Source: an uncultured bacterium (GTDB lineage: Bacteria; UBP4; UBA4092). From it: a DNA stretch of 64,000 nt. Shown here piece after piece: positions 37,364 to 64,000 of the stretch. Below the pieces are notes generated by a model, which saw nothing but the letters and a program-made list of their open reading frames with translations, did no database searches and was not told the origin of the DNA. Position 1 is the stretch's first letter. Every line of letters starts with the position of its first letter. Where the stretch lies: positions 195,283 through 259,282 of the forward strand of contig CAVYHJ010000002.1 in NCBI GenBank assembly GCA_963768165.1, in the 5' to 3' direction. The position numbers were made by a program, and so were the translations under genes.

Positions 37364-37912
37364 TTAAAGTAAATATTTCATAGGATTCACAGGTACTCCA
37401 TTTAGCCGAATTTCAAAATGGACATGCGGTCCTGTGGCAAGTCCGGTACTGCCCACCAAGGCAATGACCTGTCCGCGTTCCACCCCTTGACCCACTTGGA
37501 CTAGAACACTGGAACAATGCCCATATAAAGTAATAAAATCATTGTCATGTTGGATAATGACGCATTTCCCTAAAAGCCCATGCCATCCGGCACCTACCAC
37601 ACGCCCGGATTGCGATGCGCAAATAATGGTTCCATGCTCTGCGGCAATATCTATTCCACTATGAAACCGGATTCCCCCCTCGATAGGATGATGGCGATAA
37701 CCAAACCCAGACGTTATAAGCCCATCTACCGGCCAGACAAAACCAAGTTTTTCATCAGGCACGGAACCGTTAAAATATTGATTGACATTCCTATTATTCA
37801 TCTCAGGTGCCTGCGCATAACTCCAATTGGCGATAATTCCAGGTATCACCAAAAGCAACATAATACCTGTCATCCGTTTTTTATAGAGTTGTTTCCATAA
37901 CCGTTTCATCAT
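37364..37912 (-). CDS. Secreted M23 family metallopeptidase
   Basis: HxxxD-type HSGIDIA and HVHFE motifs; start set at MMKRLW (AGGAG RBS, signal peptide) rather than the ORF-track start 38023. Confidence 0.8.
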   Translation of the reverse strand: MMKRLWKQLYKKRMTGIMLLLVIPGIIANWSYAQAPEMNNRNVNQYFNGSVPDEKLGFVWPVDGLITSGFGYRHHPIEGGIRFHSGIDIAAEHGTIICASQSGRVVGAGWHGLLGKCVIIQHDNDFITLYGHCSSVLVQVGQGVERGQVIALVGSTGLATGPHVHFEIRLNGVPVNPMKYLL

Positions 37913-38097
37913 TTTTCTCCTAACTTTTTGACGAGCAGAGCCGGACTGGTGGCAATCCGACCCTGCTCTAACCCCGCTCATACAATTCAAAATACGGGAT
38001 ATCTTTAAATCCTTAAAAAACACCTATAAGGATTATTTCCAATACATACTGTACAAAAAATGATTAAATTGGTTTAGGAAGTAAAATGGGAGGGTTA

Positions 38098-46695: not shown

Positions 46696-48714
46696 TTATT
46701 GTAATTCCAGCAGTCCCTTTTTTGCCCCCGCATATTCCGGATTGAAAAACAAGACTCGATTGTAAGATTCTTTCGCCAGATCCTTTTTCCCCTGAGTTTG
46801 GTATAACAATCCCAATCGGTAATGGGAGGAAATATTTTCGGGTTCTAACTGTACCGACTCTTTCCATTCACTTTCTGCTTTCCCAAATTCTTTATTGGTG
46901 AAATAATAAATTCCCTGATAGTAATGGTAATCCGATAAACGCTCGAACGCCCATGCCCTCCAAAAATCTTTTTGGGAAATATCTGACGGCGTATACCGGT
47001 AAACATAATTTATTTTTGGCGGTAGATATGGATAAGGATGTTCAGGGACGGCATTTTTGACAGGTACACTTGTCACATGATAAAGCAACCCTTCCTGAGT
47101 TACTGATAACGACGGGTTAATTCGAAGATTATATTTCTCATAAAAATAACAGGGACGCTGTGATAGATTCTGTTTGAAAAATTGGAACATTTGCCAATCC
47201 ACAAACGTGAATGCCTGGTTGGGATTTTTGGGGACTTGAGAATTGTTGAAGGTGGGGATTTGTAATTTTGGATCATGGATTCTGTTTAACCCTTCATAAT
47301 ACCATCCCAGCGCCAGTGACGTTCGCGAAAGTACGGTGACATCCGCACGATAATGTTCCACTTGCTGCAAATACCAAACTGGGAATACATGTAAATCATC
47401 GTCACCGATAAATAAAGCCTTCGGTTCCATAGTATCCAAAATATCTTTTCCAAAATCATACGCGAGATAATAATTACGCTCATTATGTTTTAAGAATTGG
47501 GTTACAAAGCCCGTCAAAACAAAAAAAACGCTAATGGCATATGCTAGAAAATATCTATTGGGTTTGTTATTGATAATTGTATATCCAATTCTCGTAATCC
47601 CTATCCCCCCCCATATCCCATAAATTAAGTATGCAGGAATAAAAAAAACGTCCCGGGTTTCTAAAGAGAGTAGTTGAGTCATGGGATGATTATTGACAGC
47701 ACAGAAAAATAACCACACGACTATAGCAATCCCTCCCAATAGAATGGCGGAGGATTTATGATTCTGTCCAAGCCAAGATAACCCGAATAATGCGCATAAT
47801 CCCAAAATAATTCCGTAAATCAATCCGGAGATGGTTACGGATTGCCCGGTCAACAAAACCCATGCGGTCGTGCCCAACTGTTCTTCCAGCAAGCCCCATG
47901 ACCGTCTCCATTCAAACGGCGGGTAATCGCTTCGTAATAGAATTTCTCTGAATCCTTTCCATGTATCCGCTTTTCCCCATTCGATCATTCCCAAATGCGG
48001 TGTTACCAACGGCAGTAATAAATATACCGAAAATCCTAATAAAGCCAGGGAAATACCAATAAGTAAAGGTTTAAGTGAAAATGTATTTTTGAATTGCCCC
48101 TGCAATAACAAAAAAAGAATTACTACCGGAACATAAAGAACGGAGGTATGATGAATCCCCAGGCTGAACGACCACAGGAATACCCCCGCGTACCAATATC
48201 GCCGTTCCCGGGTCCGGGCGTAAAGCAATACAAATAAAATGATAAATGCCGTAAAGAACGCGCTCAACGGATGAACTTTTGCCACCAACGCCTGCGACCA
48301 AAAGGTCCCGGAAAAAGCAAATGTCAACGCACCGGATATGGCTCCGATGTGTGCCATTGTACTTGACTGTAAATCCTTTTCCGTTAAACAGTACCATTGC
48401 AAAAGAAGAAAAATAATGACATACGTTACGCCCACAGAAGCCGCCGCAAAGAATACCGATAATAAGTTCACTCTATAGCCGATATCCGTTCCAAAAGGCA
48501 GAAAAGTAAACAATTTCGCCAACAGAATATATGTCGGATAACCGGGTGGGTGCGCGAATCGCAAACCGTAGGATGCCGTGATAAAATCCCCGCTATCTCC
48601 GAAGGTCACGGTCGGTGCGACAGTATAAAGATACACCGCCCCGCTAATCAAAAAAGTCAAAATGAAATATGTAATAACTTTTTTTTGATTTACCATAAAT
48701 TTCTTGGAATTCAA
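46696..48714 (-). CDS. DUF2723-like polytopic membrane protein with C-terminal TPR repeats
   Basis: N-terminal YLYTVAPTVTFGDSGDF motif, many TM segments, C-terminal TPR-like helices. Confidence 0.6.
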   Translation of the reverse strand: MNSKKFMVNQKKVITYFILTFLISGAVYLYTVAPTVTFGDSGDFITASYGLRFAHPPGYPTYILLAKLFTFLPFGTDIGYRVNLLSVFFAAASVGVTYVIIFLLLQWYCLTEKDLQSSTMAHIGAISGALTFAFSGTFWSQALVAKVHPLSAFFTAFIILFVLLYARTRERRYWYAGVFLWSFSLGIHHTSVLYVPVVILFLLLQGQFKNTFSLKPLLIGISLALLGFSVYLLLPLVTPHLGMIEWGKADTWKGFREILLRSDYPPFEWRRSWGLLEEQLGTTAWVLLTGQSVTISGLIYGIILGLCALFGLSWLGQNHKSSAILLGGIAIVVWLFFCAVNNHPMTQLLSLETRDVFFIPAYLIYGIWGGIGITRIGYTIINNKPNRYFLAYAISVFFVLTGFVTQFLKHNERNYYLAYDFGKDILDTMEPKALFIGDDDLHVFPVWYLQQVEHYRADVTVLSRTSLALGWYYEGLNRIHDPKLQIPTFNNSQVPKNPNQAFTFVDWQMFQFFKQNLSQRPCYFYEKYNLRINPSLSVTQEGLLYHVTSVPVKNAVPEHPYPYLPPKINYVYRYTPSDISQKDFWRAWAFERLSDYHYYQGIYYFTNKEFGKAESEWKESVQLEPENISSHYRLGLLYQTQGKKDLAKESYNRVLFFNPEYAGAKKGLLELQ

Positions 48715-48951: not shown

Positions 48952-50637
48952 TTAATATTTCTTCCAGTCAGCTATATCTACAGTCGATGGTGTCAGTATC
49001 AAATGGGTAATGGATAAGGGAGGAAGATTGTAAGTGAAAGAATTCCCGGTTACTGAAATGACGGATGGTCCAATAATGGAGGCTCCACTGTTTGAGGCTA
49101 CCGAATAGATGGTCGCACTATTGAACGTGGTTTGACTGCTAATTGTAAAATTTCCATTAATGGTCTGGGTCATATTTTTATTGAGGACCATGATATGCAA
49201 TTGTGATTGATTACTGGACATCACAGAGGCATAGATGGAGGTATCGGTAGTATCGTTCATCAACGCCTGCACATGGGTATCGCCAAAGGTGGAATTATGT
49301 CCGTCATAATTCCGGTACATCTTATAGGCTAGTGAATTATATTCATCCCCATTCCCTAAAGACCACAAACAACCCGCAAAGACACCATATTTCCCGAATA
49401 TTCCCAATACATCTGCTTCCGCTATTCCCCCTGTGATATCCCATCCTCCACCATAGTTATATTCTGAGATCGAAAGTTGGGTTCCGGGATTATAGATATT
49501 GATACAAGATTGAATCGCTGGAATATAAGGACAAAATGGTGCCCAGTAAGTTGTTTGACCTTGTCCTATCCAACTGGGTTGAATATAATTGCTATCCCAT
49601 AATTCACGGGGAGCTTGTAACCGGGCTAATTTATCTGCATTCGTGTCATTACCGGAATTGGTACTATTTATCCGATGAGTACCTGTGACCTCTGAATAGT
49701 CATGAATATCGAGCACATCCAGTAATCTAAATCCGTAAGCTGTAGAAGCCTGATACAGTTTATCCAAATAATAGCTAAGAAACCAGCCATAACTTCCTTG
49801 AACAGTGCTCCAATCGGGTGCATTTTGCAAAGTCAGAAAACCTTCAAAACCATAGTCTACCGGGCCGAACATCAGAGCCGTTGAATCCACCGACTTGATG
49901 GCGGAAGAACAGGCAATTGTCTTTTGGACTAATTCCGTGCATTGGGTTGCCGTGGGATGAATTTCCTTATGTGTGGAGGGCCATAGACTGGGTTCATTAT
50001 CCAAGTCGTAGAAGGGAACTCCACCAGTTACCTGGCTTAATGTACTGAAAGAGCTTAGGCTGCCAGCACCCGTCCCAAACCTGTTCACCAGATAGTTGAC
50101 CTGTTCATCCATATACACGGTAGAACCATTATCATACTTTGTCTCTTTCGGGTTCGTAGTAAAGGCGGAACCTTTATGAAATGCTATGGGATTAAATCTC
50201 GATGAAGAGAATGATGCCGTACTGACAACACCTGTATCATCTGCTGAAACATAACCGGCCATCTGGATTGTTAATAGGTTCTGTGCCGTGAATTTCGATC
50301 GGGTATCTAAGACATACACCGTATTCGTAGTACACGGAGACACCGTACCAATGGAAACGGAAACCCCGCCTGGTAGCATATAATCATCGCTTTCGAATAT
50401 ATAATCATTTCCTGCATTGGACCAATTCGTGACCCAGTTATATGCCGTCAAACGGTTTCCACCCATTCGAAACAAAGTAAAATTCTCCCCCCCTACCAAA
50501 TCCTGATTGGTTCCGTAAATATAGGGGCTGATTGGTTGCTGGTCGGTTTGGGGTGAAATCGTGTAGTTGACGTTTATTTGTGCGAAGGCGGAAATGGTTA
50601 GGTTGAGTAAGACGAGAAACACGAGCTTTTTTTGCAT
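48952..50637 (-). CDS. Secreted glycoside hydrolase, GH44-like (short paralog)
   Basis: Signal peptide; FRMGGNRLTAYNW, DLDNEPSLW and SEYNYGGGWDITGG motifs resemble GH44 from memory; 561 aa. Confidence 0.55.
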   Translation of the reverse strand: MQKKLVFLVLLNLTISAFAQINVNYTISPQTDQQPISPYIYGTNQDLVGGENFTLFRMGGNRLTAYNWVTNWSNAGNDYIFESDDYMLPGGVSVSIGTVSPCTTNTVYVLDTRSKFTAQNLLTIQMAGYVSADDTGVVSTASFSSSRFNPIAFHKGSAFTTNPKETKYDNGSTVYMDEQVNYLVNRFGTGAGSLSSFSTLSQVTGGVPFYDLDNEPSLWPSTHKEIHPTATQCTELVQKTIACSSAIKSVDSTALMFGPVDYGFEGFLTLQNAPDWSTVQGSYGWFLSYYLDKLYQASTAYGFRLLDVLDIHDYSEVTGTHRINSTNSGNDTNADKLARLQAPRELWDSNYIQPSWIGQGQTTYWAPFCPYIPAIQSCINIYNPGTQLSISEYNYGGGWDITGGIAEADVLGIFGKYGVFAGCLWSLGNGDEYNSLAYKMYRNYDGHNSTFGDTHVQALMNDTTDTSIYASVMSSNQSQLHIMVLNKNMTQTINGNFTISSQTTFNSATIYSVASNSGASIIGPSVISVTGNSFTYNLPPLSITHLILTPSTVDIADWKKY

Positions 50638-50860
50638 GATTACATACTCCTAATAAATTAAATAGTTCAATATGTCTACATTAGATAATAGGATAATAAA
50701 AATATATTTGCAATATGATAAATCTTTTCCAATATAAGACGTGGCGGAAATAGTGGAAGAGTGGGCAAGAGAATTAATAAAAAAGAGGATATTCTGAAAT
50801 GAACAACCCTATGTACTTATTATAAATTTCTAGTAAAATTTCCCTTGATTATTACCCCGA

Positions 50861-53287
50861 TTAATATTTTTCCCAGTCATCTATATCTACAGTCGATGGT
50901 GTCAGTATCAAATGGGTTATGGATAAGGGAGGGAGATTGTAGGTGAAAGAATTCCCGGTTACTGGAATAACGGACGGTCCGATGATGGATGTTCCACTGC
51001 TTGAGGCTACCGAATAAACGGTGGCACTATTGAACGTAGTGAGACTGCTAATCGTAAAATTTCCCTGGATGGACGATGTCCAATTTTTATTCAGCACCAT
51101 GATATGCAATTGCGATTGATTACTGGACATTACAGAGGCATAGATGGAACTATCTACCGTATCGTTCATCAACGCCTGCACATGAGTATCGCCAAAGGTG
51201 GAATTTTTACCGTCATAGTTCCGATACATTCGAAAAGCCAAGGAAATAAAATTATCTACCGATCCCCAATAACTTGCCGCATAAACCCCGTATTTCCCAC
51301 AAATTCCAAAAAAGTCCGCTTGGGCAATTCCCCCCGTAATATCCCAACTGCCGCCAAAACTATATTCCGAAAATGATGTTTTTGTACCGGGATAGTAATT
51401 ATAAATGGAAGTTTGAATGGTCGGAATAAGCGGTAAATAGGCATCGTAATATTGTCCAATCCAGCTATTCTCAACATAATTCTTATCCCATAATGTCCGC
51501 GGCGCTTGTAGCCGGACGGTCTTATCTGAATACGTATCGGAGTCGGAATTTGTCCCCGTAATGGAATTTCCCTCAGAGCCAGCAGCGGAAGAATAATAAT
51601 GCAGATCCAACACATCCAACAATCGTTCTCCTATAGTCACAGAAGCTTTATGCACTGTATCCAAATAGTACGATAAAAACCAATCCGGTGAATACCCGTT
51701 ATCTACATTGGCCCAATCCGGAGCACCTTGCAAAGTCAGATAACCTTCAAAACCATATTCCACCGGGCCAAACACCATGGCCGTCGAATCCACCGACTTG
51801 ATGGCAGAAGAACAGGCTATCGTCTTCTGAACCAGTTCCGTACAACAGGTTGCTGTGGGATGAATTTCCTTATGTGTTCCCGACCAAATCGAGGGTTCAT
51901 TATCCAAGTCATAGAAGGGAATTCCACCGGTTACCTGACTTAATGTACTGAAAGAGCTTAGACTGCTGCCACCCGTACCAAACCTATTCACCAGATAGTT
52001 CACTTGTTCATCCATATACACCGTAGCCCCATCATCATAACTTGTCTCTGTCGGTTTCGTGGTAAAGGCGGAACCTTTATGAAACGCTATCGGGTTAAAT
52101 CTCCACGATTGAAATGACGTCGTACTGACGTCCCCCGTATCATCTGCCGAAACATACCCAGCCATCTGGATCGTTAATAGGTTCTGTGCCGTGTAATGGG
52201 AGCGGGTATCTAAGACATACACCGTGTTGGTCGTACACGGATTCGCGTTAAAACTGCCAGAAACACCGCTGGGATACATACCATCATCGCTCTCAAAATA
52301 CCAGTCACTTCCTGCATTGGACCAATTAGTGACCCAGTTATAGGCGGACAAACGGTTTCCGCCCATGCGAAATAAAGTAAAGTTCTCTCCCCCTACCAAA
52401 GGCCCGAAATTAATTCCATAAATATAGGGACTAATGGCTTGTTGTTCCAATTGAGGGGAGATAGAGTAATTGATTGTGATTTGAGACAGGGTAATGGATA
52501 AAGCTTGGGTGGCTGTGGATCCCACTGAATCAGTTACTTTCACAGTAAAGTCATAAACACCTAATGAAGTCGGAGTTCCTGAAATAGTGCCTGAACTATA
52601 GAAAGTCAACCCGGGAGGTAATGTTCCCGTCGTTGTAGTCCAAGTATAGGGAGGAGTCCCATTCGCTGCTTGAAGGATCTGATTATAAGGAAAATTAATT
52701 GTTCCATTGGGTAAACTGGAGGTCGTGATAATTAAAGAAGGTGTTGTCGTAGATAGGGAGGGGCCAAAAATAACATTGTCAATTTTAAAAGTATAATTTC
52801 CGGTATTGGTCCCGATAAGAATTTGAAGGCCAATCCGATCCATCGGAGTTCCAATCCCGGTGTCATTTCCATATAATATGCTTGACTGCCAAGAGTTGGA
52901 TAAAGTCAACCATGATCCATTAGCCCAGGTCCATCCAGAACCTTGTTGCGAATATACTTGTGCATTGGGGGAAGATGCAGAATTGGTACATGCAACATAC
53001 ATACTCAAGATAGTATCAGTTCCCAATGTAAATGGTGGATTCGAGTAATAGACATCTATATTGGCACTGGTAGATGAAGTTTTGTTTACATAGACATAAA
53101 GACAGTCCTCACCGGAATATCCACCGGGTCCCCAACCGATAGTAAAAGAACCATAGTTACCACTTTCCCAGGCAGCTACCCAACCGGTGGTATTACTCGA
53201 TTGGGAAAAGAAATCTGAATATGATGCAATTACAGGGCTGAGAATGGTTAGGGAAAGTAGAAGAGTTGAAATAAGAAGTTTTTTCAT
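50861..53287 (-). CDS. Secreted GH44-like hydrolase with N-terminal extra and Ig-like domains
   Basis: 808 aa; N-terminal about 270 aa with PPYTWTTTTGTLPPGL...GTISGTP Ig-like segment, then the same catalytic region as 48952..50637. Confidence 0.55.
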   Translation of the reverse strand: MKKLLISTLLLSLTILSPVIASYSDFFSQSSNTTGWVAAWESGNYGSFTIGWGPGGYSGEDCLYVYVNKTSSTSANIDVYYSNPPFTLGTDTILSMYVACTNSASSPNAQVYSQQGSGWTWANGSWLTLSNSWQSSILYGNDTGIGTPMDRIGLQILIGTNTGNYTFKIDNVIFGPSLSTTTPSLIITTSSLPNGTINFPYNQILQAANGTPPYTWTTTTGTLPPGLTFYSSGTISGTPTSLGVYDFTVKVTDSVGSTATQALSITLSQITINYSISPQLEQQAISPYIYGINFGPLVGGENFTLFRMGGNRLSAYNWVTNWSNAGSDWYFESDDGMYPSGVSGSFNANPCTTNTVYVLDTRSHYTAQNLLTIQMAGYVSADDTGDVSTTSFQSWRFNPIAFHKGSAFTTKPTETSYDDGATVYMDEQVNYLVNRFGTGGSSLSSFSTLSQVTGGIPFYDLDNEPSIWSGTHKEIHPTATCCTELVQKTIACSSAIKSVDSTAMVFGPVEYGFEGYLTLQGAPDWANVDNGYSPDWFLSYYLDTVHKASVTIGERLLDVLDLHYYSSAAGSEGNSITGTNSDSDTYSDKTVRLQAPRTLWDKNYVENSWIGQYYDAYLPLIPTIQTSIYNYYPGTKTSFSEYSFGGSWDITGGIAQADFFGICGKYGVYAASYWGSVDNFISLAFRMYRNYDGKNSTFGDTHVQALMNDTVDSSIYASVMSSNQSQLHIMVLNKNWTSSIQGNFTISSLTTFNSATVYSVASSSGTSIIGPSVIPVTGNSFTYNLPPLSITHLILTPSTVDIDDWEKY

Positions 53288-53394
53288 CGGAAGGACTATC
53301 CTTTCAAATAAATAATTTATGATACGTTAAATTTACCTCAATCGGTGAGGTCATGTCAATGGATCTTAACCAATAAAAACGCGATAGAAATAGT

Positions 53395-53437
53395 GGAAGA
53401 ATAAATAAAAAAAGGAGTGTTCTGACATGAACACCCC
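53395..53437 (-). terminator. Intrinsic terminator after GH44-like gene copy 3
   Basis: Hairpin GGAGTGTTC-TGACAT-GAACACCCC followed by U-run on the minus-strand transcript. Confidence 0.5.
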
Positions 53438-53478
53438 TATATACTCATTATTATAAAATTCTAGTAGAATGTCTCTAG

Positions 53479-55908
53479 TTAATCTTTCTTCCAGTCAGGT
53501 ACATTAAGATTTACAGGCATCAATATAAAATGGGTAATGGATAAGGGAGGGAGATTGTAGATGAAAGAATTCCCGGTCACTGGAATAACAGATGGCCCGA
53601 TGATGGATGTTCCACTGGTTGAGACTATCGAATAAACGGTTGCAGTATCGAAAGTGTATAGACTGCTAATCGTAAAATTTCCCTGGATGGACTGAGTCCA
53701 ATTTTTATTCAACACCATGATATGTAATTCCTGATTACTCGACATCACAGAGGCATAGATGGAGGTGTCTGTGGTATCATCCATCAATGCCTGGACATGA
53801 GTATCCCCAAAAGTGGAATTTTTCCCGTCATAATTCCGATACATTTTATAGGCCAAGGAAGTATACTTGTCTCCCTGACCCAAGGACCAATAGCACGCCG
53901 CATAAACCCCATATTTCCCATAAATTCCTAAAGCATCCGCTTGCGCTATCCCACCCGTAATATCCCAACCGCCGCCAAAGCTGTATTCCGTAAATGAGTT
54001 TTTTGTACCGGGATAGTAATTATTGATGGAAGTTTGGATGGTCGGAATAAGCGGCAGATATTGGTCATTCCATTGTGCAATCCAGCTTGGTTCAATATAA
54101 TTCTTATCCCATAATGTCCGCGGTGCTTGTAGCCGAACTTGTTTATCACTCAATGTATCACTGGTAGGCGTTGTCCCCGTAATGGAATTTCCTTCAGAAC
54201 CAGTAGGGGAAGAATAATAATGAAGATCCAACACATCCAACAATCGTTCTCCAAAAGTCACAGAGGCTTGTTTCACAGTGTCCAAATAGTACGATAAAAA
54301 CCAGTTCGGTGAATATCCGGTGCTCACACTGGCCCAATCCGGTGCACCTTGCAAAGTCAGATAACCTTCAAAACCATATTCCACCGGACCGAACACCAAA
54401 GCCGTTGAATCTACCGACTTGATGGCAGAAGAACAGGCAATCGTCTTTTGAACTAATTCCGTACAACAAGTTGCTGTGGGATGAATTTCCTTATGTGTTC
54501 CCGACCAAATCGAGGGTTCATTATCCAAGTCATAGAAGGGAATTCCACCGGTTACCTGACTTAATGTACTGAAAGAGCTTAGACTGCTGCCACCCGTACC
54601 AAACCTATTCACCAGATAGTTCACTTGTTCATCCATATACACCGTAGCCCCATCATCATAACTTGTCTCTGTCGGTTTCGTGGTAAAGGCGGAACCTTTA
54701 TGAAACGCTATGGGATTAAATCTCCACGATTGAAATGACGTCGTACTGACGTCCCCCGTATCATCTGCCGAAACATACCCAGCCATCTGGATCGTTAATA
54801 GGTTCTGTGCCGTGAACTGGGAGCGGGTATTTAAGACATACACCGTATTGGTCGTACACGGAGACACCGTACCAATGGAAACGGAAACCCCGCCTGGTAA
54901 CATACCATCATCGCTCTCGAAATACCAATCATTTCCTGCATTGGACCAATTCGTGACCCAGTTATAGGCGGATAAACGGTTTCCGCCCATTCGAAATAAA
55001 GTAAAGTTCTCACCCCCCACCAAAGTCTGATTAGTTCCATAAATATAAGGACTAATGGCTTGTTGCTCTAATTGAGGGGAAATGGTGTAATTGACTGTGA
55101 TTTGAGTCAGGGTAATGGATAAAGCCTGGGTGGCTGTGGAGGCTACTGAGTCGGTTACTCTCACAGTAAAGTTATAAATACCTAATGAAGTCGGAGTTCC
55201 TGAAATAGTGCCTGAACTATAGAAATTCAATCCGGGAGGTAAAGTTCCTGCCGTGGTTGTCCAGGTATAAGGAGGTGTTCCATTGGCTGCTTGCAATACC
55301 TGGCTATAAGAATAATTAATCGTTGCATTGGGTAAACTGGAAGTTGTAATCACTAAGGGCGGTACTGTTGTGGATAAAGATGGGCCAAAAATAACATTAT
55401 CAATTTTAAAAGTATAATTTCCGGTATTGGTTCCGATAAGAATTTGAAGGCCAATCCGATCCATCGGAGTCCCACTTCCGGTGTCATTTCTATATAATAT
55501 GCTTGACTGCCAAGAGTTGGATAAAGTCAACCATGATCCATTAGCCCATGTCCATCCAGAACCTTGTTGCGAATATACTTGTGCATTGGGGGAAGATGCA
55601 GAATTGGTACATGCTACATACATATTTAAAACGGTATCGGTTCCTAAAGTAAAGGCTGGATTCGAGTAATAGACATCTATATTGGCACTGGAGGATGAGG
55701 TTTTGTTTACATAGACATAGAGACAATCCTCTCCGGAATATCCCCCTAGACCCCAACCAACAGTGATGGTACCATAAGGACCCCCTTCCCATGCAGCACT
55801 CCAACCAACGGTATCACTCGATTGGGAAAAGATAGTTGAATAAGAAGCAAATACAGGACTGAAAATTATTATGGTAAGAAGAAGAGTTGGAATAAGAAGT
55901 TTTTTCAT
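53479..55908 (-). CDS. Secreted GH44-like hydrolase with N-terminal extra and Ig-like domains (paralog)
   Basis: Start set at MKKLLIPTLLL (same RBS context as copy 2); nucleotide-level similarity to 50861..53287. Confidence 0.55.
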   Translation of the reverse strand: MKKLLIPTLLLTIIIFSPVFASYSTIFSQSSDTVGWSAAWEGGPYGTITVGWGLGGYSGEDCLYVYVNKTSSSSANIDVYYSNPAFTLGTDTVLNMYVACTNSASSPNAQVYSQQGSGWTWANGSWLTLSNSWQSSILYRNDTGSGTPMDRIGLQILIGTNTGNYTFKIDNVIFGPSLSTTVPPLVITTSSLPNATINYSYSQVLQAANGTPPYTWTTTAGTLPPGLNFYSSGTISGTPTSLGIYNFTVRVTDSVASTATQALSITLTQITVNYTISPQLEQQAISPYIYGTNQTLVGGENFTLFRMGGNRLSAYNWVTNWSNAGNDWYFESDDGMLPGGVSVSIGTVSPCTTNTVYVLNTRSQFTAQNLLTIQMAGYVSADDTGDVSTTSFQSWRFNPIAFHKGSAFTTKPTETSYDDGATVYMDEQVNYLVNRFGTGGSSLSSFSTLSQVTGGIPFYDLDNEPSIWSGTHKEIHPTATCCTELVQKTIACSSAIKSVDSTALVFGPVEYGFEGYLTLQGAPDWASVSTGYSPNWFLSYYLDTVKQASVTFGERLLDVLDLHYYSSPTGSEGNSITGTTPTSDTLSDKQVRLQAPRTLWDKNYIEPSWIAQWNDQYLPLIPTIQTSINNYYPGTKNSFTEYSFGGGWDITGGIAQADALGIYGKYGVYAACYWSLGQGDKYTSLAYKMYRNYDGKNSTFGDTHVQALMDDTTDTSIYASVMSSNQELHIMVLNKNWTQSIQGNFTISSLYTFDTATVYSIVSTSGTSIIGPSVIPVTGNSFIYNLPPLSITHFILMPVNLNVPDWKKD

Positions 55909-55997
55909 CGGAAGGACTATCCTTTCAAATAAAAATATATATGATACATTAACTATATTTACCACAATCGGTGAGGCTATGTCAATGTATAATAATC

Positions 55998-57429
55998 AGG
56001 AGTTTCCCCATTTTTTAATCGAAATCAAATTGAAGGAACAACTGATTGGGTTCCAAGAAAGGTTTTTGGGATTGGGGAGTATATTTCCAACGGGTATTAA
56101 AGAAGACCCGAAAGATGCCATCGGCCAAGGCATATTGATGGAAAGCAGGAATTTGAAAGAAACGTTTGGCCCGGGTATAAATTTTACGAAGAAGTACCGC
56201 AAGTCGAAGAGTTCCACCAAGGAAGACACTCAGGAAATAGAAGACGGCAAAGAGTAAGACGACAGTATTTTTCAGAGAGCGATACGTGCGTACCCGTACA
56301 TCCTCGAGATGATATTCTTTTTTAAGAAACCGGATACTTTCTTCCACTTTCCAACGAGTCAGATAAATCTCCAAAATACGAAGAGGGGAAAAGGTTACAT
56401 TGGTTAAGAGGATGAGCGGCTCGGATCCAAATCCTTTCACGACCACTAAAAACAAATCTTCCCCTGATAGCGTAGGAAAATGAACTTTGGTTTTCCCCAG
56501 AGATAATAATCGTTTTTCCGTATACCCTTGTTGATCGACCTCCACCGTATACTCCTGGGGACAAGCAAGCTCTTGGGCCATCTGTCGAGCCAGTTGTTCA
56601 ACCCGATTCGGAGTAATCAATCCACGGTCTCCTTTGAGACGAACCACAAATCGCAAGTCCCTCGCCAACCAGTCTCGAATCAGGTTTTTTCGGTCTCCCC
56701 CACGGTCCATGACCCAAATCCCTTTACCCTTCAAGGAGCTATTGACTTGATCCATCGCTTTGAATATTTGATGGTTCTCGCTGATGAAATCATGCGCCTT
56801 CGCCGAATATAATTCACTGTAGAGGGGATACAAATTCTTTTGGTCTACCCGGGCACCCACCACTTCTAACACCCAATATCCCCAGGTCTTCTGTTTCTCT
56901 ACCCCATCCCAAACCCAATCTAAGAAATCCATCTTCTGGGCATAGGGTTTGGAGATATCCGTCAAATCAATCGCTAATACCGTATCCGGATCTATTCGAT
57001 CTCGCACATGCTCCAGCATCTGATCCAAGACCTGTTGGGATAACTCTGGATCTTGCAGATTTCGAGACAACCGATTCTCCGTCTTGATCAATTTGATCTC
57101 CTCATGTAAATTACGGGCCACTTCCGATAACTTGATATCCCGCGAGGCTTGAATCCCAAAGAGCATCTGATGAAGAAATCTCCGTTGTGGTTTGGGGAGT
57201 CCTTTCCCAAGGACCTCCATAAAGTGATCTAATTGAGTATTGATTTTTTCCAGTAATCTGCTATCGTTATTCATAGGAACCTCCGATTTTGGGGAATAAG
57301 ATTCCCCATTTTTTTCTCCAAGGCTATTTTATCCCCGCTCAGAGGTTCCTTACCACTTCCTATTTTACATCCCTTATTGATATCTCGCAGGTTATATTAT
57401 TCAATCCCTAAATTCTGGGGAAACTCCTC
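55998..57429 (-). mobile_element. IS4-like insertion sequence with 8-bp target-site duplication
   Basis: Terminal inverted repeats CAGGAGTTTCCCCA (55998-56011) and TGGGGAAACTCCTC (57416-57429); flanking direct repeats ATAATAAT at 55990-55997 and 57430-57437; one transposase ORF. Confidence 0.7.
56015..57274 (-). CDS. DDE transposase (IS4-family-like)
   Basis: 419 aa; candidate DDE residues in AIDLTDI, VMDRGGD and YLTRWKVEESIRFLKKE. Confidence 0.75.
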   Translation of the reverse strand: MNNDSRLLEKINTQLDHFMEVLGKGLPKPQRRFLHQMLFGIQASRDIKLSEVARNLHEEIKLIKTENRLSRNLQDPELSQQVLDQMLEHVRDRIDPDTVLAIDLTDISKPYAQKMDFLDWVWDGVEKQKTWGYWVLEVVGARVDQKNLYPLYSELYSAKAHDFISENHQIFKAMDQVNSSLKGKGIWVMDRGGDRKNLIRDWLARDLRFVVRLKGDRGLITPNRVEQLARQMAQELACPQEYTVEVDQQGYTEKRLLSLGKTKVHFPTLSGEDLFLVVVKGFGSEPLILLTNVTFSPLRILEIYLTRWKVEESIRFLKKEYHLEDVRVRTYRSLKNTVVLLFAVFYFLSVFLGGTLRLAVLLRKIYTRAKRFFQIPAFHQYALADGIFRVFFNTRWKYTPQSQKPFLEPNQLFLQFDFD

Positions 57430-57803
57430 ATAATAATTGATTCAAGATGGCTTTATTTTCAATCATGTTATTTTAAAAATTGTAAAGAATAATTTCAAAT
57501 TAACAATCATTTCTATTATTGGTTAAATAAGTGTAAAGTTAGCTACACACTGTCTCCGTATTAACTCCACTTTGTCTCCCAATGAACCGTATAGGTACTT
57601 TTCAGATGCTTTTACTAAAATAAATTTATGAAACACTTTATTTTTTTAATTTTTAGGGCTTTTAGAAGGAGAGTTGTCTACACTTTAGCGACTAACCTAC
57701 TAATCATTTAAGGCACGTAGATTGAGCTCCATAAAATTTTCTTGCATGGTCGGTATCCAGTGACACCCGTACCGAAATAGGGAGATCTTTGATTCGTGAA
57801 AAA

Positions 57804-58643
57804 TTAACCTTTCAGCCCGGAGGTGGATAAAGACTTCACAATATGCTCTTGAAAAACAAAGAAGATAATCAAGACAGGAATTATAGCCAGTGCAGCTCCA
57901 GCCATCTGGATATTTTCCGACCCGGTATATCTTCCCTGGAGGAGAGCTATTCCCAAGGGAAGAGTATATTTATCTTCATCCAATAGAAAAATTAAAGGAC
58001 CTACAAAATTATTCCAGGAACCCAAGAAAGTGAGGATGGCTAAAGTAGCAATCAAGGCTTTCGATAATGGAACAATTATTAAACTATAGGTATAGAAATC
58101 CGGACAGCCATCAATTTTGGCGGCATCTGTTAAATCATTCGGGATCGTCTCAATAAACTGTTTCGCAAGAAACACACCAAAGGTACCTGCCAGACTGGGG
58201 ACTATTAAAGGAAGGTAGGTATTTAACCAATGGAAATCCCGCATGAGTATAAATCCCGGCACCAATAAAACACTGCCCGGAATCATCATGGTCGCCAGCA
58301 TCGCCAGGAATATTTTATCTTTACCCGGGAATTGGTGTTTGGCAAAGGTATACCCCGCGAGAGAACAAAAGAAAATGGTTCCCAAGGTAACACTCCCGGA
58401 GACAACTACACTATTCCACATGAAACGTAGGTACGGCATACCGACCATCAGTTCCCGGTAGGGAATTAAAGTTGGAAAGTGTTTGAACCATAAACTAATA
58501 GGAATAGCGATGACATCCTCCCCCTTTTTAAAAGAAGTAATCACCATAAAATAGAACGGGATGACCATCACAATTCCAAACAAAGCCATCAAGAAATAAA
58601 TTAAAAAGCGAAAGAAGGATTTCTTGATTCGATAAGTATTCAT
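57804..58643 (-). CDS. Carbohydrate ABC transporter permease (MalG-like)
   Basis: Six-TM permease with EAA-loop-like AAKIDGCPDF..IIVPLSKAL. Confidence 0.85.
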   Translation of the reverse strand: MNTYRIKKSFFRFLIYFLMALFGIVMVIPFYFMVITSFKKGEDVIAIPISLWFKHFPTLIPYRELMVGMPYLRFMWNSVVVSGSVTLGTIFFCSLAGYTFAKHQFPGKDKIFLAMLATMMIPGSVLLVPGFILMRDFHWLNTYLPLIVPSLAGTFGVFLAKQFIETIPNDLTDAAKIDGCPDFYTYSLIIVPLSKALIATLAILTFLGSWNNFVGPLIFLLDEDKYTLPLGIALLQGRYTGSENIQMAGAALAIIPVLIIFFVFQEHIVKSLSTSGLKG

Positions 58644-58647
58644 TGCA

Positions 58648-61149
58648 TTAATCTACTTTCTTACCAAACAACCATTTAAAATTGATATACGTTAAAACAA
58701 AAATGATAGCAAATAAAATATACGCTATGGCGGAAGATTCACCCATTTTAAAATCCTCGAATCCTTTACGATAGAGATAACACACCATGGTCATCCCCGA
58801 ATCCGCCGGACCAAACTTGGAACCCGCTTCTCCGGCACCACCACCCAAAACATAAATCTGGTCAAAGACCTGGAGCGCGCCGATTGTGCCGGTAACGGTA
58901 AGAAACAAAATCTGCGGGCGCAGCATAGAGAGCGTTATCTGCCAGAAATTCTGAAGGGCATTCGCCCCATCAATTGCAGCCGCCTCATAGAGTTCATTGG
59001 GAATATTCTGCAATCCTGCCAAATAAATAAGAACCGTGAATGCCAATCCCTGCCAGACGCTCATGGCAATAACAGCATAGAGGAAGGTCTGGGAGTTATG
59101 AAGAAAATTAACCGGGTCTCGAATTAATCTTAAATTTAATAACAATGCATTAATCCAGCCATATTTAGCTCCCAGAAAGAGAACTGTCCAAATTAATGCC
59201 ACAGATACTACAGAAGTGACCAATGGAGAAAAATAGACAAACTTGAACATTCTATCCGGTTTAAGTTTCTTGTCCAACCCAATCGCAAATAAGACGGCCA
59301 TAAACATTTGTAATGGAATGACTATCAGACAAAATACCAGTGTTCTGCCGAAACTGGACCATAAATCATTTTCAGACAGGAACATTTTTAACTTACCCGC
59401 CCAGGACAGATTGGCATTGGCAGAATCCGTAAAGATCTGGGAATTAGCAAACAATATTCCTTTAAAGTTTTTAAGACCCACCCAGTCCGCTGTCGACAAG
59501 GGCAAGACAGGATTATATGCTGTAAACGCTATATAAATGGATACACACATAGGGATAAATAGAAAAATTAATAAACTTAAAACAGTCGGGGTAATGTACA
59601 GATAAGAATACCAGTTTTTACGAGCCTGAGAATTCAACAGAATGAATCCTAAACAACAAAGGATGAGAATACCTGACGCGATTTTGGAATAAAAAAGAAC
59701 ATCTTTTTTCTTTTCAAGAGCAGGCAACCGTTCCACGATATTCGTATAATATTTATTAAAATCTTTGAGTCGTTCTGCCAACGCCTTATTCGCAAGGGGT
59801 GTAATGCGGTCAATTTCCTCGTCGCATAAATTACTTTCATAATTCAAGAATTTCTTATATTCATCAGGATATTTCCCCTGAGCGAACGCCGCATTGATTT
59901 TAAAAAGAGTAGTTTTTTCCTTACCGGCCACACTGATGAGATAATCCCGGATATCATTACGAAGTCTTGAAAAAGAATTATCAAGGAATCTATCCGATTC
60001 AGGACTGCCCACAATATAGGGCCATGACCGGGTACAATACATAATCTGTTTTAAAGATTCCTGATCGTCTTTCGGGATGCCAGGTAAAGGCTCATCCCAA
60101 AATTCTTTTAAAGGAGACAAGAAAAGGTTCCGGCCTTCTCCCCGGTTATTCATATTATCGTTAAAAATATATTTTTGAACATCCTTCCGGTAATAGTATT
60201 GAATCCACTGCATGGCTTCTTTGGGATGTTTAGACTTCCGAAAAATGACAAAACTGGTACCGCCAAGAATCGAAGCCGATTGGCCGTTATCTGCTGCCGG
60301 CATGGGAACGATGCCCCATTTCCCTTTTAGAAAAGGAGCCCGTTTTTCAATTTCCAGGTAATACCATATCCCATCAATCATCATGGGGGCCGCGAATCCC
60401 TTTTCATCCGAGACAAATAATTCCAACCCTTTATCCAACTCAATATTACCGTTATTCCATAACCCTATTGCAAACTTAAATCCTTCTCGAAACCGGGGGT
60501 CCTGCCAGTTGACTTTGGTACCATCGGTAGACATGGTTTCCGTCCCCAATGGCCAAACAAACTGGCCAATCGCCCAGCCTGAATCTCTTGTAAAAGAAAC
60601 ACTATACTGGTATTCATTGGCTTCCAGAACCCGGATGACTTCTTTAAGTTCCGACCAGGTATTGGGTGGTTTAATCCCTAGTTTGGCAAAAATATCTTTC
60701 CGGTAGTAAATACCCAAGGAGGTCATTCCCTGCGGAATACCATAAAGATGATTTTGAAAATAAAAAATCCTCCAAGGACCTTCAAAAGACTTTTGTTTGA
60801 GATCTTCGATTTCCTTTGGGAACATAGCTTGCAGGTCAACCAATCCCCCGATTGAACCATAATCTCCCGGTCCTCCCAAATTAGTCGTCGCCAAATCCGG
60901 CGGGTCTCCAGCGGCCATCGCAGTAAGATATTTGGTATAGAATTGCCCCCAGGAGATGGGTTGAACAATTACATGGATTCCGGTTTCTCTTTCAAAGTTT
61001 CCGGCAATTACCCGGTACATCCGGCCATCATACGCATCTCCGACATTCCAAAAACGCAAGGTAACAGCCAAGGAAGAATTTGGTAACAACCCAAAAGTGA
61101 TAAGTATGATTGATGAAACAGTTAGTAATTTAATATATCGCCAAGGCAT
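58648..61149 (-). CDS. Fusion of extracellular solute-binding protein and ABC permease (MalF-like)
   Basis: N-terminal signal peptide and about 450-aa family-1 SBP-like region, then six-TM permease with EAA loop (EAAAIDGANALQ); 833 aa. Confidence 0.75.
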   Translation of the reverse strand: MPWRYIKLLTVSSIILITFGLLPNSSLAVTLRFWNVGDAYDGRMYRVIAGNFERETGIHVIVQPISWGQFYTKYLTAMAAGDPPDLATTNLGGPGDYGSIGGLVDLQAMFPKEIEDLKQKSFEGPWRIFYFQNHLYGIPQGMTSLGIYYRKDIFAKLGIKPPNTWSELKEVIRVLEANEYQYSVSFTRDSGWAIGQFVWPLGTETMSTDGTKVNWQDPRFREGFKFAIGLWNNGNIELDKGLELFVSDEKGFAAPMMIDGIWYYLEIEKRAPFLKGKWGIVPMPAADNGQSASILGGTSFVIFRKSKHPKEAMQWIQYYYRKDVQKYIFNDNMNNRGEGRNLFLSPLKEFWDEPLPGIPKDDQESLKQIMYCTRSWPYIVGSPESDRFLDNSFSRLRNDIRDYLISVAGKEKTTLFKINAAFAQGKYPDEYKKFLNYESNLCDEEIDRITPLANKALAERLKDFNKYYTNIVERLPALEKKKDVLFYSKIASGILILCCLGFILLNSQARKNWYSYLYITPTVLSLLIFLFIPMCVSIYIAFTAYNPVLPLSTADWVGLKNFKGILFANSQIFTDSANANLSWAGKLKMFLSENDLWSSFGRTLVFCLIVIPLQMFMAVLFAIGLDKKLKPDRMFKFVYFSPLVTSVVSVALIWTVLFLGAKYGWINALLLNLRLIRDPVNFLHNSQTFLYAVIAMSVWQGLAFTVLIYLAGLQNIPNELYEAAAIDGANALQNFWQITLSMLRPQILFLTVTGTIGALQVFDQIYVLGGGAGEAGSKFGPADSGMTMVCYLYRKGFEDFKMGESSAIAYILFAIIFVLTYINFKWLFGKKVD

Positions 61150-61291
61150 GTTTGTTTTCTATTTAAGAACCGAAAACGTTTTTATTATAGCAGAAAAGCA
61201 TGCCATAATTATTTTTGGAAGGCCAAAGGAGGGGGTACTAGAACATTCGATTATTCGCTCGGAATAGCATACCATCTCCACTCAATCCCGT

Positions 61292-61867
61292 TCAAGTAGT
61301 TAAAGAGACATTGACCGGTTTGCGGGCTTCCAAAGAATCAATTTCAAAGTATTCTTTTGTTTTAAAACCACCAAAGGAGGCAATCATGCTACTGGGAAAC
61401 ATCAACACCTGATTATTGAAATCCCGGACATTGGAATTGTAAAATCTGCGTGAGGCTTGAATCCGATTTTCGGTATTGATCAGTTCTTGTTGCAATTTTA
61501 GAAAATTCTGATTGGCTTTAAGCTCAGGATAATTTTCAACCACGGCAAATAAAGATTTCAATTCATTCACAAGTTGATTCTCAGCCTGTGCCTGGGACTC
61601 TGGATTTCCGGTATTAGCCATTGCAGCGGCACGGGCTTGGGCAATTCTTTCAAAAATATTTTTTTCATGTTGGGCATACCCTTTGACCGTCTCCACTAGA
61701 TTGGGGATAAGGTCATAGCGCCGCCGCAATTCTGTGTCTATATTTGACCAAGATTCGGGGATCATCTGATTTAATTTGACAAGAGAATTGTATCTTCCAA
61801 AACAATAAATAATAAAAGCTAAAAGTACCATTCCTGTTAAAGGACATAAAACCGCAAATGCACCCAA
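61292..61867 (-). CDS. lemA: LemA family protein
   Basis: N-terminal TM, then LemA-typical RYDLIPNLV...YAQHEK...ARAA...RRFYN. Confidence 0.85.
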   Translation of the reverse strand: MGAFAVLCPLTGMVLLAFIIYCFGRYNSLVKLNQMIPESWSNIDTELRRRYDLIPNLVETVKGYAQHEKNIFERIAQARAAAMANTGNPESQAQAENQLVNELKSLFAVVENYPELKANQNFLKLQQELINTENRIQASRRFYNSNVRDFNNQVLMFPSSMIASFGGFKTKEYFEIDSLEARKPVNVSLTT

Positions 61868-61900
61868 GACTGTCTCCTCTTATAAATATTTTCTTTATGT

Positions 61901-63040
61901 TTACAAAGAATTTTCCTCTTTCACATAATCGGGTATCAAATCAAAGAATTTATGCGCACATATAAGAAAATTATCCATTTGTTGTGCCGAAACACGATAA
62001 GTTTTCCATTGATCTTGTTGGGCTTTTTTAAAACGATCCCAATAATTTGTCGTATTCGTAAGGGAATGAACAAATTTGAATATAACCGTTTGCGATCTGG
62101 CTGTCATAGACAACATCGTTGTTCCCTGGCGTGGTAAATTGAGTATGAATTCAATCATTTGAGGATGAATGATGTCATAGGAGAATTTTTTATCTTCACA
62201 TTTTACATAATACTTTTTAGAGAATTCCGCTGATTCAAAGTCAAGCCCACGACGATTTGGGAATTTACCTAAAATACGCGCCAATTCAAAGAGCGATGGT
62301 TCAAACACGGTAGATGTTTCTGAGTTGGGATGTGATATCTCGACTGCGGTATCCCCGAATGCAGCGAGAGATTTGAAAAAAGATGCTCCACAAAATAGGA
62401 CATAGAGAGGATATCTAAATACCAGTGAAGTATCCACGGCAATGCATGTTTCGTAAATAGTTTTTCGTTCCTGACCTCTTCCCGTCGCGACTGTTACTTG
62501 ATAATCGAAAGTACAGATGTCCCTATCTTTCTCACGCCCCAGACAAATATTGTACATTTTTTTCTTCTCACCTCTAAAACCATAATCGGTAAACCTTTCA
62601 AGAAGGCCTATAGAATCATCTTGTAGGTATGTAAATCCATGGCGCTTGGCGAAATCCCGCCATTCCATCCGGCGTTTTTCATCTACCTTTTTCTGACTAA
62701 CAATAATGGAAATAATGATAGCGACAACACCTAAACTAAACATAGGACACAACAAACCCACCAAAGAATCTTTCATTATCAGCATAAGAGCAACGAAGAA
62801 GATACCAGTACCTCCAATTATGTACTTGGTTTTTATATCAAAATTTTTAGGCGGTTCGGCTGTGGGAGGAGTCGTTACTTCTGGCGGAACATTCTCCGGT
62901 GGATTTTCTCGAACTGGCGGGGATTCGTTCTGGACATATTCTTTTATAACTTGTGTTCCACACGAACTGCAAAATTCGTCTTCACGAGTAAGTGGTTTCC
63001 CACATTTTCTACAGAATCCCCCACCAGTATCAGTATCCAT
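61901..63040 (-). CDS. Zinc-ribbon membrane protein, LemA-associated (possibly DUF3137-like)
   Basis: N-terminal CRKCGKPL...CSSCG zinc ribbon, Pro-rich linker, two TM segments, about 250-aa soluble domain. Confidence 0.4.
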   Translation of the reverse strand: MDTDTGGGFCRKCGKPLTREDEFCSSCGTQVIKEYVQNESPPVRENPPENVPPEVTTPPTAEPPKNFDIKTKYIIGGTGIFFVALMLIMKDSLVGLLCPMFSLGVVAIIISIIVSQKKVDEKRRMEWRDFAKRHGFTYLQDDSIGLLERFTDYGFRGEKKKMYNICLGREKDRDICTFDYQVTVATGRGQERKTIYETCIAVDTSLVFRYPLYVLFCGASFFKSLAAFGDTAVEISHPNSETSTVFEPSLFELARILGKFPNRRGLDFESAEFSKKYYVKCEDKKFSYDIIHPQMIEFILNLPRQGTTMLSMTARSQTVIFKFVHSLTNTTNYWDRFKKAQQDQWKTYRVSAQQMDNFLICAHKFFDLIPDYVKEENSL

Positions 63041-63069
63041 AATTCAATCCTTCCTAATTGCAAGTATAC

Positions 63070-64000
63070 TTAGAACATATTGGTTAATACGATTTTGGTC
63101 AACCATCCACTCAATAAGATCATAATGGGGACGGTACAGGCTGATACGGCTTCTGAGATTTTGGAAATTTTCGTGCATCCGCTATACAGAATCAGGATTG
63201 TATAACAGAGGGAGAATACCGACAATATGCCCATAAGTTCTACGTTTGCCAGATCCAATATCCCAAAGAGAATCCCGGAAACGAGGATTACGACTGCCAT
63301 GGGTAATAACGCCGAACCGGCAATGAACATATCACCTTCGATTCCTCCCATTCCATGAAACGATTTACGGACTAAAAAACTGGCTAAAACAATGCTCAAG
63401 AAAGGGATTGCCGCAAACAGAATTAATTGGAAAAAATCTTTCATAGTTATTTGTTTAATTGCGTCTACGAAATTGGAACTCCCTCTAGGGTAGCTATAAG
63501 AAGAAGAATTTTGTGGTTCAAGAAATATTTTCCCCAGTCTATCTTTTACCTGATTGAGCTGTGCAACGGTCAGATCGGAAGATTTCTGAATATCGGGTGA
63601 TATGAGACCAAAGAGTTTTAGAGAATTGAATTCTTCATCATTCATACGGTAATTTTCCCTTTGTAATCCATTTTCAATTTCAGAATATACATTTTCTAAC
63701 CCTCTTATAATACCTCTGAGATCATTAAGCTGATCAAGAGTTAAATCCGAATAATTTTTAGAAAATGTATCTTCCCATTTACTTGCCGTTTCATTAATTC
63801 TATTAATTTGATCCTGATTCAGGTTGGGTACGTTTTGTGCGTTGGGAACAAGTCCCAAGCTTTTAATTTTTTTGAATTGCTGTTGGATTACTTCGGATTC
63901 ACTGAGTGTTTTAGGAATTCGCGTTCGTTGAGAAAATCCACTGGAATAGTTTAACATTCCAAGTCCCCAACCCTGTCCCGACATGGGACTATTCCACACA
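63070..64000 (-). CDS. Hypothetical membrane protein, 5' partial (continues beyond window)
   Basis: Reading frame open to the window edge; C-terminal TM segments. Confidence 0.4.
   Translation of the reverse strand, partial: VWNSPMSGQGWGLGMLNYSSGFSQRTRIPKTLSESEVIQQQFKKIKSLGLVPNAQNVPNLNQDQINRINETASKWEDTFSKNYSDLTLDQLNDLRGIIRGLENVYSEIENGLQRENYRMNDEEFNSLKLFGLISPDIQKSSDLTVAQLNQVKDRLGKIFLEPQNSSSYSYPRGSSNFVDAIKQITMKDFFQLILFAAIPFLSIVLASFLVRKSFHGMGGIEGDMFIAGSALLPMAVVILVSGILFGILDLANVELMGILSVFSLCYTILILYSGCTKISKISEAVSACTVPIMILLSGWLTKIVLTNMF

Follow-up and report, generated by a model that had tools for sequence, protein, structure and literature searches.

A family-1 solute-binding domain and a MalF-type ABC permease on one polypeptide in an uncultured UBP4 bacterium

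Can the solute-binding protein (SBP) of an ATP-binding cassette (ABC) sugar importer form one polypeptide with the permease, and how would an exported domain then be joined to a membrane subunit? The question is raised by one gene in a stretch of 64,000 nucleotides (nt) from an uncultured bacterium (GTDB lineage Bacteria; UBP4; UBA4092), namely positions 195,283 to 259,282 of the forward strand of contig CAVYHJ010000002.1 in assembly GCA_963768165.1. This whole stretch is the window to which the coordinates below refer. A first-pass annotation, made from the DNA letters, had read positions 58648-61149 as a protein of 833 amino acids (aa) that combines a signal peptide, an SBP and a permease. 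These positions do hold a single open reading frame (ORF) on the minus strand, which runs unbroken for 833 codons from the ATG at 61149 to the TAA at 58648-58650. By our own arithmetic, the chance of a frame of this length is about (61/64)^833, or roughly 1e-17.

A binding domain and a permease on one chain

The two domains by which the first-pass annotation had proposed to check the protein were both present above their Pfam cutoffs. SBP_bac_1 covers residues 47-326 (E 1.5e-37; 130.7 bits, cutoff 26), with SBP_bac_8 over the same residues and likewise above its curated cutoff, and BPD_transp_1 covers residues 617-821 (E 6.6e-11; 42.7 bits, cutoff 26.4). The matches to NCBIfam models (MalE-like at residues 31-320, UgpA-like at 510-828 and MalF-like at 600-825) were all below threshold, yet the similarity is clear. 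The AlphaFold2 (AF2) model, with a mean predicted local distance difference test score (pLDDT) of 86.2 and a predicted template modeling score (pTM) of 0.82, contains a complete SBP fold, a stalk, an additional transmembrane (TM) helix termed here TM0, and a core of six TM helices. A profile search of the PDB returned no sequence spanning both modules, and in Foldseek no solved chain covered more than about 41% of the model; thus, a structure of such a fusion appears not to exist. The gene and the parts of its product are as follows.

58648..61149, minus strand: the fused gene, 833 aa, encoding signal peptide, SBP domain, stalk, TM0 and permease core (ORF, Pfam, 33 homologues, AF2)
61069..61149, minus strand: Sec-type signal peptide, residues 1-27, reading MPWRYIKLLTVSSIILITFGLLPNSSLAVT with the predicted cut after SLA, between MPWRYIKLLTVSSIILITFGLLPNSSLA and VT (hydrophobic segment 5-23)
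59914..61068, minus strand: bilobed family-1 (CUT1-type) substrate-binding domain, residues ~28-412 (Pfam, PDB profile, Foldseek)
59701..59913, minus strand: helical stalk or linker, residues ~413-483 (AF2 secondary structure, family junction alignment)
59635..59700, minus strand: TM0, the extra transmembrane helix, residues ~484-505 (hydropathy, AF2 helix 484-505)
58651..59613, minus strand: six-TM permease core of the UgpA/SugA/MalF type, residues 513-833 (BPD_transp_1, UgpA-like match, PDB, TM helices)
58927..58986, minus strand: EAA coupling-helix motif, residues 722-741, EAAAIDGANALQNFWQITLS (regular-expression match)

That the SBP-permease fusion is genuine, and not the result of a frameshift or an assembly artifact, is confirmed by an identical re-assembly, by 33 homologues, by a gap-free junction and by the recurrence of both modules on one chain. 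A contig assembled separately from run ERR11523654 agrees with positions 57539..63100 of the window at all 5,562 nt (0 mismatches), and its encoded protein is the same; the contig may stem from the same reads, and the agreement rules out an assembler error, not a read error. Full-length homologues numbering 33, of 778-848 aa and 25-68% identity, with the same three Pfam domains, were returned by a search of 5.8 billion clustered proteins. They include proteins of the cultured Fimbriimonas ginsengisoli, which has a complete 5.23-Mb genome, of Chthonomonadaceae and other Armatimonadota, and of a Chlorobia and a Phycisphaerae metagenome-assembled genome (MAG). The junction region is alignable in all 33 and free of gaps in the 32 closer ones. 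A family profile was also run against 1.84 billion representatives, and 149 sequences of the best 150 matches were retrieved. Both modules lay on one chain in 92 of the 149, the SBP was N-terminal in every one of these (92/92), and TM0 was present in 89 of them. A frameshift, an assembly error or a lost stop codon that merged separate SBP and permease genes would suit the normal CUT1 gene order (SBP, MalF-type, MalG-type), the metagenome-type assembly of the window and the results of a species-genome search, in which the matches listed were mostly generic CUT1 permeases and most loci matching both halves of the query held separate, adjacent SBP and permease genes, but such an origin is effectively refuted by the identical 5,562 nt (though possibly from the same reads), by one ORF with an aligned junction in homologues down to 25% identity, by the same gene in the complete genome of a cultured strain, and by TM0, a dedicated element that would be superfluous in unfused systems and yet recurs in nearly all the fused representatives. 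A hidden frameshift or stop, which the first-pass annotation had named as the finding that would turn the protein into two genes, is absent from the uninterrupted ORF, from the re-assembly and from the homologues.

The N-terminus has a positive n-region, a hydrophobic core and a site for cleavage between SLA and V. This Sec-type pattern, traced by hydropathy over residues 1-27, bears out the signal peptide of the first-pass annotation; cleavage after SLA is predicted from the pattern, and no lipobox was found in the N-terminus. Most family members with a complete start display the same n-h-c pattern, with AxA-like sites. On sequence and modeled fold, residues ~28-412 are a complete MalE-like family-1 SBP and a predicted carbohydrate binder. 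The best PDB profile match of this domain is the sophoro-oligosaccharide binder Lin1841 (5ysb, E 2.2e-40). Foldseek gave TMt values of 0.82 for the X. citri MalE (3uor), 0.79-0.81 for Lin1841 (5ysb) and 0.77 for the cellodextrin binder CbpB, and values of 0.75-0.83 extend over nearly the full length of SBP structures of 385-397 residues. The structures nearest to the domain are those of binders of sophoro-, cello-, malto- and manno-oligosaccharides, and many Trp, Tyr and Asp residues of the domain are invariant or nearly so in the family alignment.

The stalk is modeled as helices at residues 415-424, 428-467 (40 residues) and 471-480, and it is closed by a conserved LPxxE motif. A hydropathy peak marks TM0 in 33 of 33 family members and a Lys/Arg-rich loop follows it; Lys and Arg number 112 after TM0 and 78 before it. 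Hydropathy and the AF2 model give seven TM helices after the binding domain, namely TM0 and the six of the core. The first-pass annotation had described a six-TM, MalF-like permease. The six-TM core stands, the core is UgpA/SugA-like, and TM0 had been missed. It is this missed helix that makes the fusion topologically possible. Permease cores of the UgpA/SugA type begin in the cytoplasm, and an exported N-terminal domain can therefore be joined to one only by way of one added membrane crossing. PDB profile matches of the core include SugA (7cad, E 4.7e-33), MalF (2r6g_F) and AlgM1 (4tqu_M). Within the EAA motif, the family shows no variation at E722, A723, A724, D727, G728 and A729. With respect to the consensus EAA-x3-G-x9-I-x-LP, the last P is replaced by S in this protein, whereas LP is kept in the family consensus.

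Partner subunit, ATPase and proposed mechanism

The neighbors of the fused gene, all on the same strand, are as follows.

57804..58643, minus strand: MalG/UgpE-like second permease, 279 aa (Pfam, NCBIfam)
55984..57442, minus strand: insertion sequence (IS) element of ~1.46 kb, with a DDE_Tnp_1 transposase at 56015..57274 (Pfam, terminal inverted repeats)
53479..55965, 50861..53287 and 48952..50637 (span 48952..55965), minus strand: three paralogues of glycoside hydrolase (GH) family 44 in tandem (Glyco_hydro_44, E ~1e-52 each)

The MalG/UgpE-like gene, the neighboring permease already seen by the first-pass annotation, begins 4 nt past the stop codon of the fused gene, and its product has an EAA-like motif (DAAKIDG...) at residue 173. 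This arrangement is common to seven of the eight fused genes examined, each with a MalG-like gene directly downstream: those of the window, of loci L001, L003, L005 and L083, and both of those at locus L084. A complete operon is found in a Planctomycetaceae MAG (L005), where the fused gene (846 aa) is succeeded by a MalG-like gene and, directly after that, by the gene of a 379-aa ATPase; the latter combines ABC_tran, TOBE_2 and OB_MalK domains, a set that is, as predicted from its sequence, the MalK/UgpC signature. The sole ABC ATPase of the window, at 3043..4068 on the plus strand, is of the DrrA/GldA type and scores higher against DrrA (212 bits) than against MalK (105 bits). There is an overlap between its gene and the first of two ABC2_membrane_6 genes, and the stretch 3043-5684 (plus strand) resembles an ABC-2 exporter system. 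On these matches, we assign the ATPase to an unrelated ABC-2 system ~55 kb from the fused gene. A regular-expression search for Walker A plus LSGGQ missed this ATPase, in which the signature motif deviates, and Pfam found it.

In our view, the product of the fused gene is likely to be the large membrane subunit of a CUT1-family (TC 3.A.1.1-type) ABC sugar importer of Type I, with a tethered receptor and a MalK/MsmK-type ATPase encoded elsewhere. We favor this reading because of the domains, the conserved junction, TM0, the EAA motifs in both subunits, the MalG-like partner and the L005 operon with its MalK-type ATPase. Counted for it as well were the glycoside hydrolase neighborhoods of the window and of the Fimbriimonas loci described below. 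The tethered-SBP oligosaccharide importer that the first-pass annotation had suggested thus gains support at the level of sequence. According to this model, the signal peptide would export the binding domain and would probably be cleaved, and the domain would stay tethered through its C-terminal helical stalk and TM0. TM0 would cross the membrane from outside to inside and lead to the cytoplasmic N-terminus of the six-TM core. The second transmembrane domain (TMD) is encoded as a separate MalG-like protein that has no SBP domain, so the gene content points to a heterodimer with one binding domain per complex; the fused subunit would pair with the MalG-like subunit and exactly one tethered binding domain would serve each translocator. 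The two EAA coupling helices would engage a dimer of the presumed MalK/MsmK-type ATPase. The tethered domain would then capture an oligosaccharide, dock on the translocator and trigger ATP-driven import, as in MalEFGK2. The tether would differ from MalEFGK2 in giving a very high local concentration of receptor and a fixed 1:1 stoichiometry.

Several observations weigh against this reading. The fused homologue of the Planctomycetota MAG AMX-MBFR-47 (L015) has no adjacent MalG-like gene; genes for an Rrf2 regulator and a NosZ-like protein come after the fused gene at L015 793-3225, which could be an orphan subunit or have its partner encoded elsewhere. The predicted signal cleavage and the predicted orientation of TM0 are drawn from hydropathy and charge bias only, and Lys and Arg also occur before TM0 (78 versus 112). 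The link to the GH44 genes is weak, with the IS element and a spacer of ~436 bp between them and the transporter pair, and no glycoside hydrolase neighbors are found at L083, whose 65%-identical fused protein is the closest relative with genomic context. Finally, in keeping with the first-pass annotation, no MalK-type ATPase is encoded in the 64-kb window. In CUT1 systems, the ATPase is often encoded elsewhere and is common to several systems (review PMC11212667), so the lack of a local ATPase gene is ordinary.

The fusion could also be genuine without the built-in SBP being the main donor of substrate; the domain might act as a sensor, a regulator, a plug or one of several receptors, or the system might be non-functional. 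The SBP fold serves in sensor proteins too, and the L015 homologue without an adjacent MalG-like gene would suit such a role. Some ABC translocators accept several SBPs, as is reported for DppA1-A5, which share the single translocator DppBCDF (PMC4206461). Against these points, the SBP fold is complete and confidently modeled, with the many invariant aromatic and acidic residues expected of a working sugar site, and the architecture has been conserved over a long time. Moreover, no separate SBP gene adjoined the fused genes in the loci examined, and the fused domains of OpuA and GlnPQ act as substrate donors (PMC8025302). We regard a non-donor role as quite unlikely.

Neighboring hydrolases and the substrate

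What the tethered importer would carry is a separate matter. The first-pass annotation had placed GH44-like genes next to the transporter genes. Three GH44 genes on the same strand are indeed present; an IS element intervenes, and the link is one of proximity only. The terminal inverted repeats of the IS (34 nt, imperfect at 76%, at 55984-56017 and 57409-57442) bound an element that sits between the MalG-like/fused permease pair and the first GH44 gene and forms part of the context, not of the transporter. The ERR11523654 contig (Logan) breaks at 57539, near the IS edge, as expected for a repeat. The IS, and the ~436-bp spacer even if the IS is disregarded, make co-transcription of the GH44 and transporter genes doubtful, and a scan for promoters and terminators around the fused-gene locus gave chance-level results only. 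Elsewhere, the ORF 16065..17324 was considered as a second IS copy and rejected; it encodes a beta-propeller (SBBP) protein.

GH44 enzymes, in the CAZy classification, are endoglucanases and xyloglucanases. The two longer GH44 proteins of the window begin with signal-like sequences. As further observations on these genes, a He_PIG Ig-like domain is found in the two longer proteins, together with an N-terminal module weakly resembling mannanase-GBD; the GTG listed as the start of 53479..55965 probably lies too far upstream, since an internal MKKLL signal begins at residue 20; and a TMEM260-like O-mannosyltransferase/TPR protein (46696..48714) comes after the GH44 genes.

By their position, the GH44 products are a possible source of substrate. 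The substrate is probably, on slight evidence, a beta-glycan oligosaccharide, for instance cello- or xyloglucan-oligosaccharides released by the neighboring GH44 enzymes. The same tethered importer could instead take up something unrelated to GH44 products, such as manno-oligosaccharides, the substrate suggested for the orthologues in Fimbriimonas, or pieces of exopolysaccharide made by the cell itself. The Fimbriimonas loci, which encode orthologues of 40-41% identity, contain GH26+CBM35, GH5, a GH2-like gene, a 2-epimerase, GH9 and GH31, and the GH26+CBM35, GH5, GH2-like and 2-epimerase genes among these make a mannan-type set. The fused gene of L083 adjoins exopolysaccharide biosynthesis genes, and the GH44 genes of the window show a weak similarity to the NCBIfam EpsB model (190 bits, cutoff 1250); the obstacles to co-transcription with GH44 point the same way. 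On the other side, the nearest carbohydrate-active genes are the three same-strand GH44 paralogues, whose products look secreted, and the best structural relatives of the binding domain include sophoro-, cello- and beta-glycoside-binding proteins. We hold a substrate unrelated to GH44 to be a serious possibility, if a somewhat doubtful one.

Apart from the transporter locus, the window contains an unusually dense cyclic di-AMP (c-di-AMP) regulon with duplicated Kdp systems. Four c-di-AMP riboswitches (ydaO/yuaA, RF00379), all on the minus strand, lie within 27 kb at 11090-11216, 29750-29873, 35440-35565 and 38110-38234, scoring 92-101 bits. They stand upstream of a 777-aa amino-acid permease (8663..10996), an M23 peptidase (37364..38023) and two kdpABC operons, one comprising kdpA (27807..29507) with kdpB, kdpC and kdpD, and the other kdpA (32812..34560) with kdpB and kdpC. 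Two adjacent ankyrin-repeat proteins of 232 and 284 aa are encoded at 14196-15831 (minus strand), and N-terminal methylation motifs of the prepilin type occur in two ORFs at 45591-46662 (plus strand). Homologues of KdpB led to an entry labeled "[bacterium]" at 84%, to Eremiobacterota at 73% and, after these, to mixed phyla. Neither rRNA nor tRNA genes were found in the 64-kb window.

Spread of the architecture and relation to known importers

How unusual is the arrangement? Among genome loci, true single-ORF fusions were found in a Sumerlaeota MAG (L003, supported by two sub-profiles of hidden Markov models) and in the Planctomycetaceae MAG of L005 and the Planctomycetota MAG of L015 (both confirmed by Pfam). 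Apparent single ORFs at L043, L064 and L077, in high-GC actinomycetes, are probably off-frame artifacts, as judged by an ORF check. A Fimbriimonas sp. MAG (L084, JBMQOS010000013.1) carries two pairs of fused and MalG-like genes within one 11-kb stretch, at 2605-5923 (794+300 aa) and 10001-13302 (825+275 aa), set among GH26, GH5, GH9, GH31 and 2-epimerase genes, which suggests that the fused format is a routine CUT1 format in this Fimbriimonas lineage. In a neighbor-joining tree of the permease halves, fused and unfused sequences are interleaved with 25 state changes; many of the "unfused" sequences are fragments or have divergent N-terminal extensions. A homology search with the binding domain alone gave only four matches, and the SBP-only relative P0073 lies 295 nt from the edge of a fragmentary contig.

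The fusion is thus unusual, as the first-pass annotation had held, relative to the unfused bulk of CUT1 and to the searchable literature, yet it is widespread in metagenomes, as the 92 of 149 top representatives attest. Full-text searches, the F. ginsengisoli genome paper included, found no fusion of CUT1 or family-1 SBPs; the classic reviews lie outside their coverage, and this absence is accordingly unproven. The architecture is not categorically new, as anyone could have seen it in public databases from the Fimbriimonas genome of 2014 onward, if not earlier. Database labels for the family ("extracellular solute-binding protein", "multiple sugar transport system permease" and "AraP") each apply to one half only. 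In the F. ginsengisoli genome paper, the ABC permease proteins number 68 and the substrate-binding proteins only 28 (PMC4072686), and we speculate that binding domains hidden within "permease" genes might be a partial cause of this imbalance.

With the canonical systems MalEFGK2, LpqY-SugABC and UgpBAEC, the present protein shares the MalE-like SBP_bac_1 fold, the BPD_transp_1 domain, the EAA motif and the six-TM core. The heterodimer of MalF-type and MalG-type subunits, here a predicted one, is likewise common to them, as is, in the related L005 operon, the MalK-type ATPase with TOBE/OB domains. In those systems, however, the SBP is either free in the periplasm or a lipoprotein, whereas here it is attached covalently to the MalF-type subunit via a stalk and a TM helix. 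MalF itself differs in having eight TM helices and a P2 domain, neither of which is found in the UgpA/SugA-like six-TM core of the fused protein. Unlike the canonical CUT1 systems, the locus in the window has no ATPase gene.

Tethered receptors are familiar from other importers. The OTCN-family proteins OpuA, OpuF and EgtU resemble the fused protein in that a binding domain and a TMD share one polypeptide and the receptor is tethered to the translocator. Their binding domains are C-terminal to the TMD, the TMDs are homodimeric, and there are two binding domains per complex. In contrast, the protein described here has an N-terminal family-1 sugar SBP with TM0, and the presence of a distinct gene for a MalG-like subunit points to a heterodimer carrying a single binding domain. 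OpuA and OpuF are ABC importers with a fused substrate-binding domain (PMC3971661), and EgtU fuses a TMD to a binding domain of cluster F (PMC9732360); the latter differs from the SBP_bac_1/SBP_bac_8 domain of the fused protein, which matches MalE-like binders of oligosaccharides. GlnPQ, of the polar amino-acid family, resembles the fused protein in its N-terminal binding domains, its TMD fusion and its export by a signal sequence. The binding domains of GlnPQ are small and of cluster F, its TMD is homodimeric, and its N-out topology creates no need for an extra TM helix. The fused protein instead has one large sugar SBP, a TM0 added to an N-in core, and a TMD predicted to be heterodimeric. 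In GlnPQ, tandem N-terminal binding domains are fused to the TMD, are exported by means of a signal sequence and provide four sites per complex (PMC8025302). The known fusions of binding domain and TMD (OpuA, OpuF, EgtU and GlnPQ) belong to ABC families other than CUT1.

The nearest topological analogue may be NanM-NanZ. NanM-transporter fusions (SiaF and NanZ-NanM) have a leader peptide and a periplasmic accessory domain at the transporter's N-terminus (PMC8461474). The N-in core of NanZ-NanM appears to have an extra N-terminal element, which would equal the topological solution provided by TM0 (PMC8461474). SiaF and NanZ-NanM differ in being secondary transporters (SSS/MFS) fused to an enzyme, and not an ABC importer joined to its receptor.

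We propose, with slightly less than even confidence, that the fused protein represents an undescribed architectural class of CUT1 importers, common in uncultured lineages, in which one family-1 binding domain per heterodimeric translocator is tethered by a stalk and an extra TM helix. The lineages in which the tethered class appears to be common are Armatimonadota, Planctomycetota and Sumerlaeota, along with uncultured relatives of these. The format may be an adaptation to their cell envelopes, for instance to a periplasm so large or leaky that an untethered binding protein would become too dilute or escape. The fused domains of OpuA and GlnPQ, importers of osmolytes and amino acids, have been closely studied, and there the tether determines how many receptors each complex has. 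If the proposal is true, tethering would have evolved also in the largest family for carbohydrate uptake, with another topology (an added TM helix) and another stoichiometry (one receptor per heterodimer). With such proteins annotated by one half, genome-based counts of sugar receptors and of ABC systems taken as "complete" could then be wrong for Armatimonadota and Planctomycetota. The fused protein would provide a natural 1:1, single-chain model for the docking of SBPs on Type I translocators and the activation of these translocators, and it would offer compact parts for the engineering of oligosaccharide uptake.

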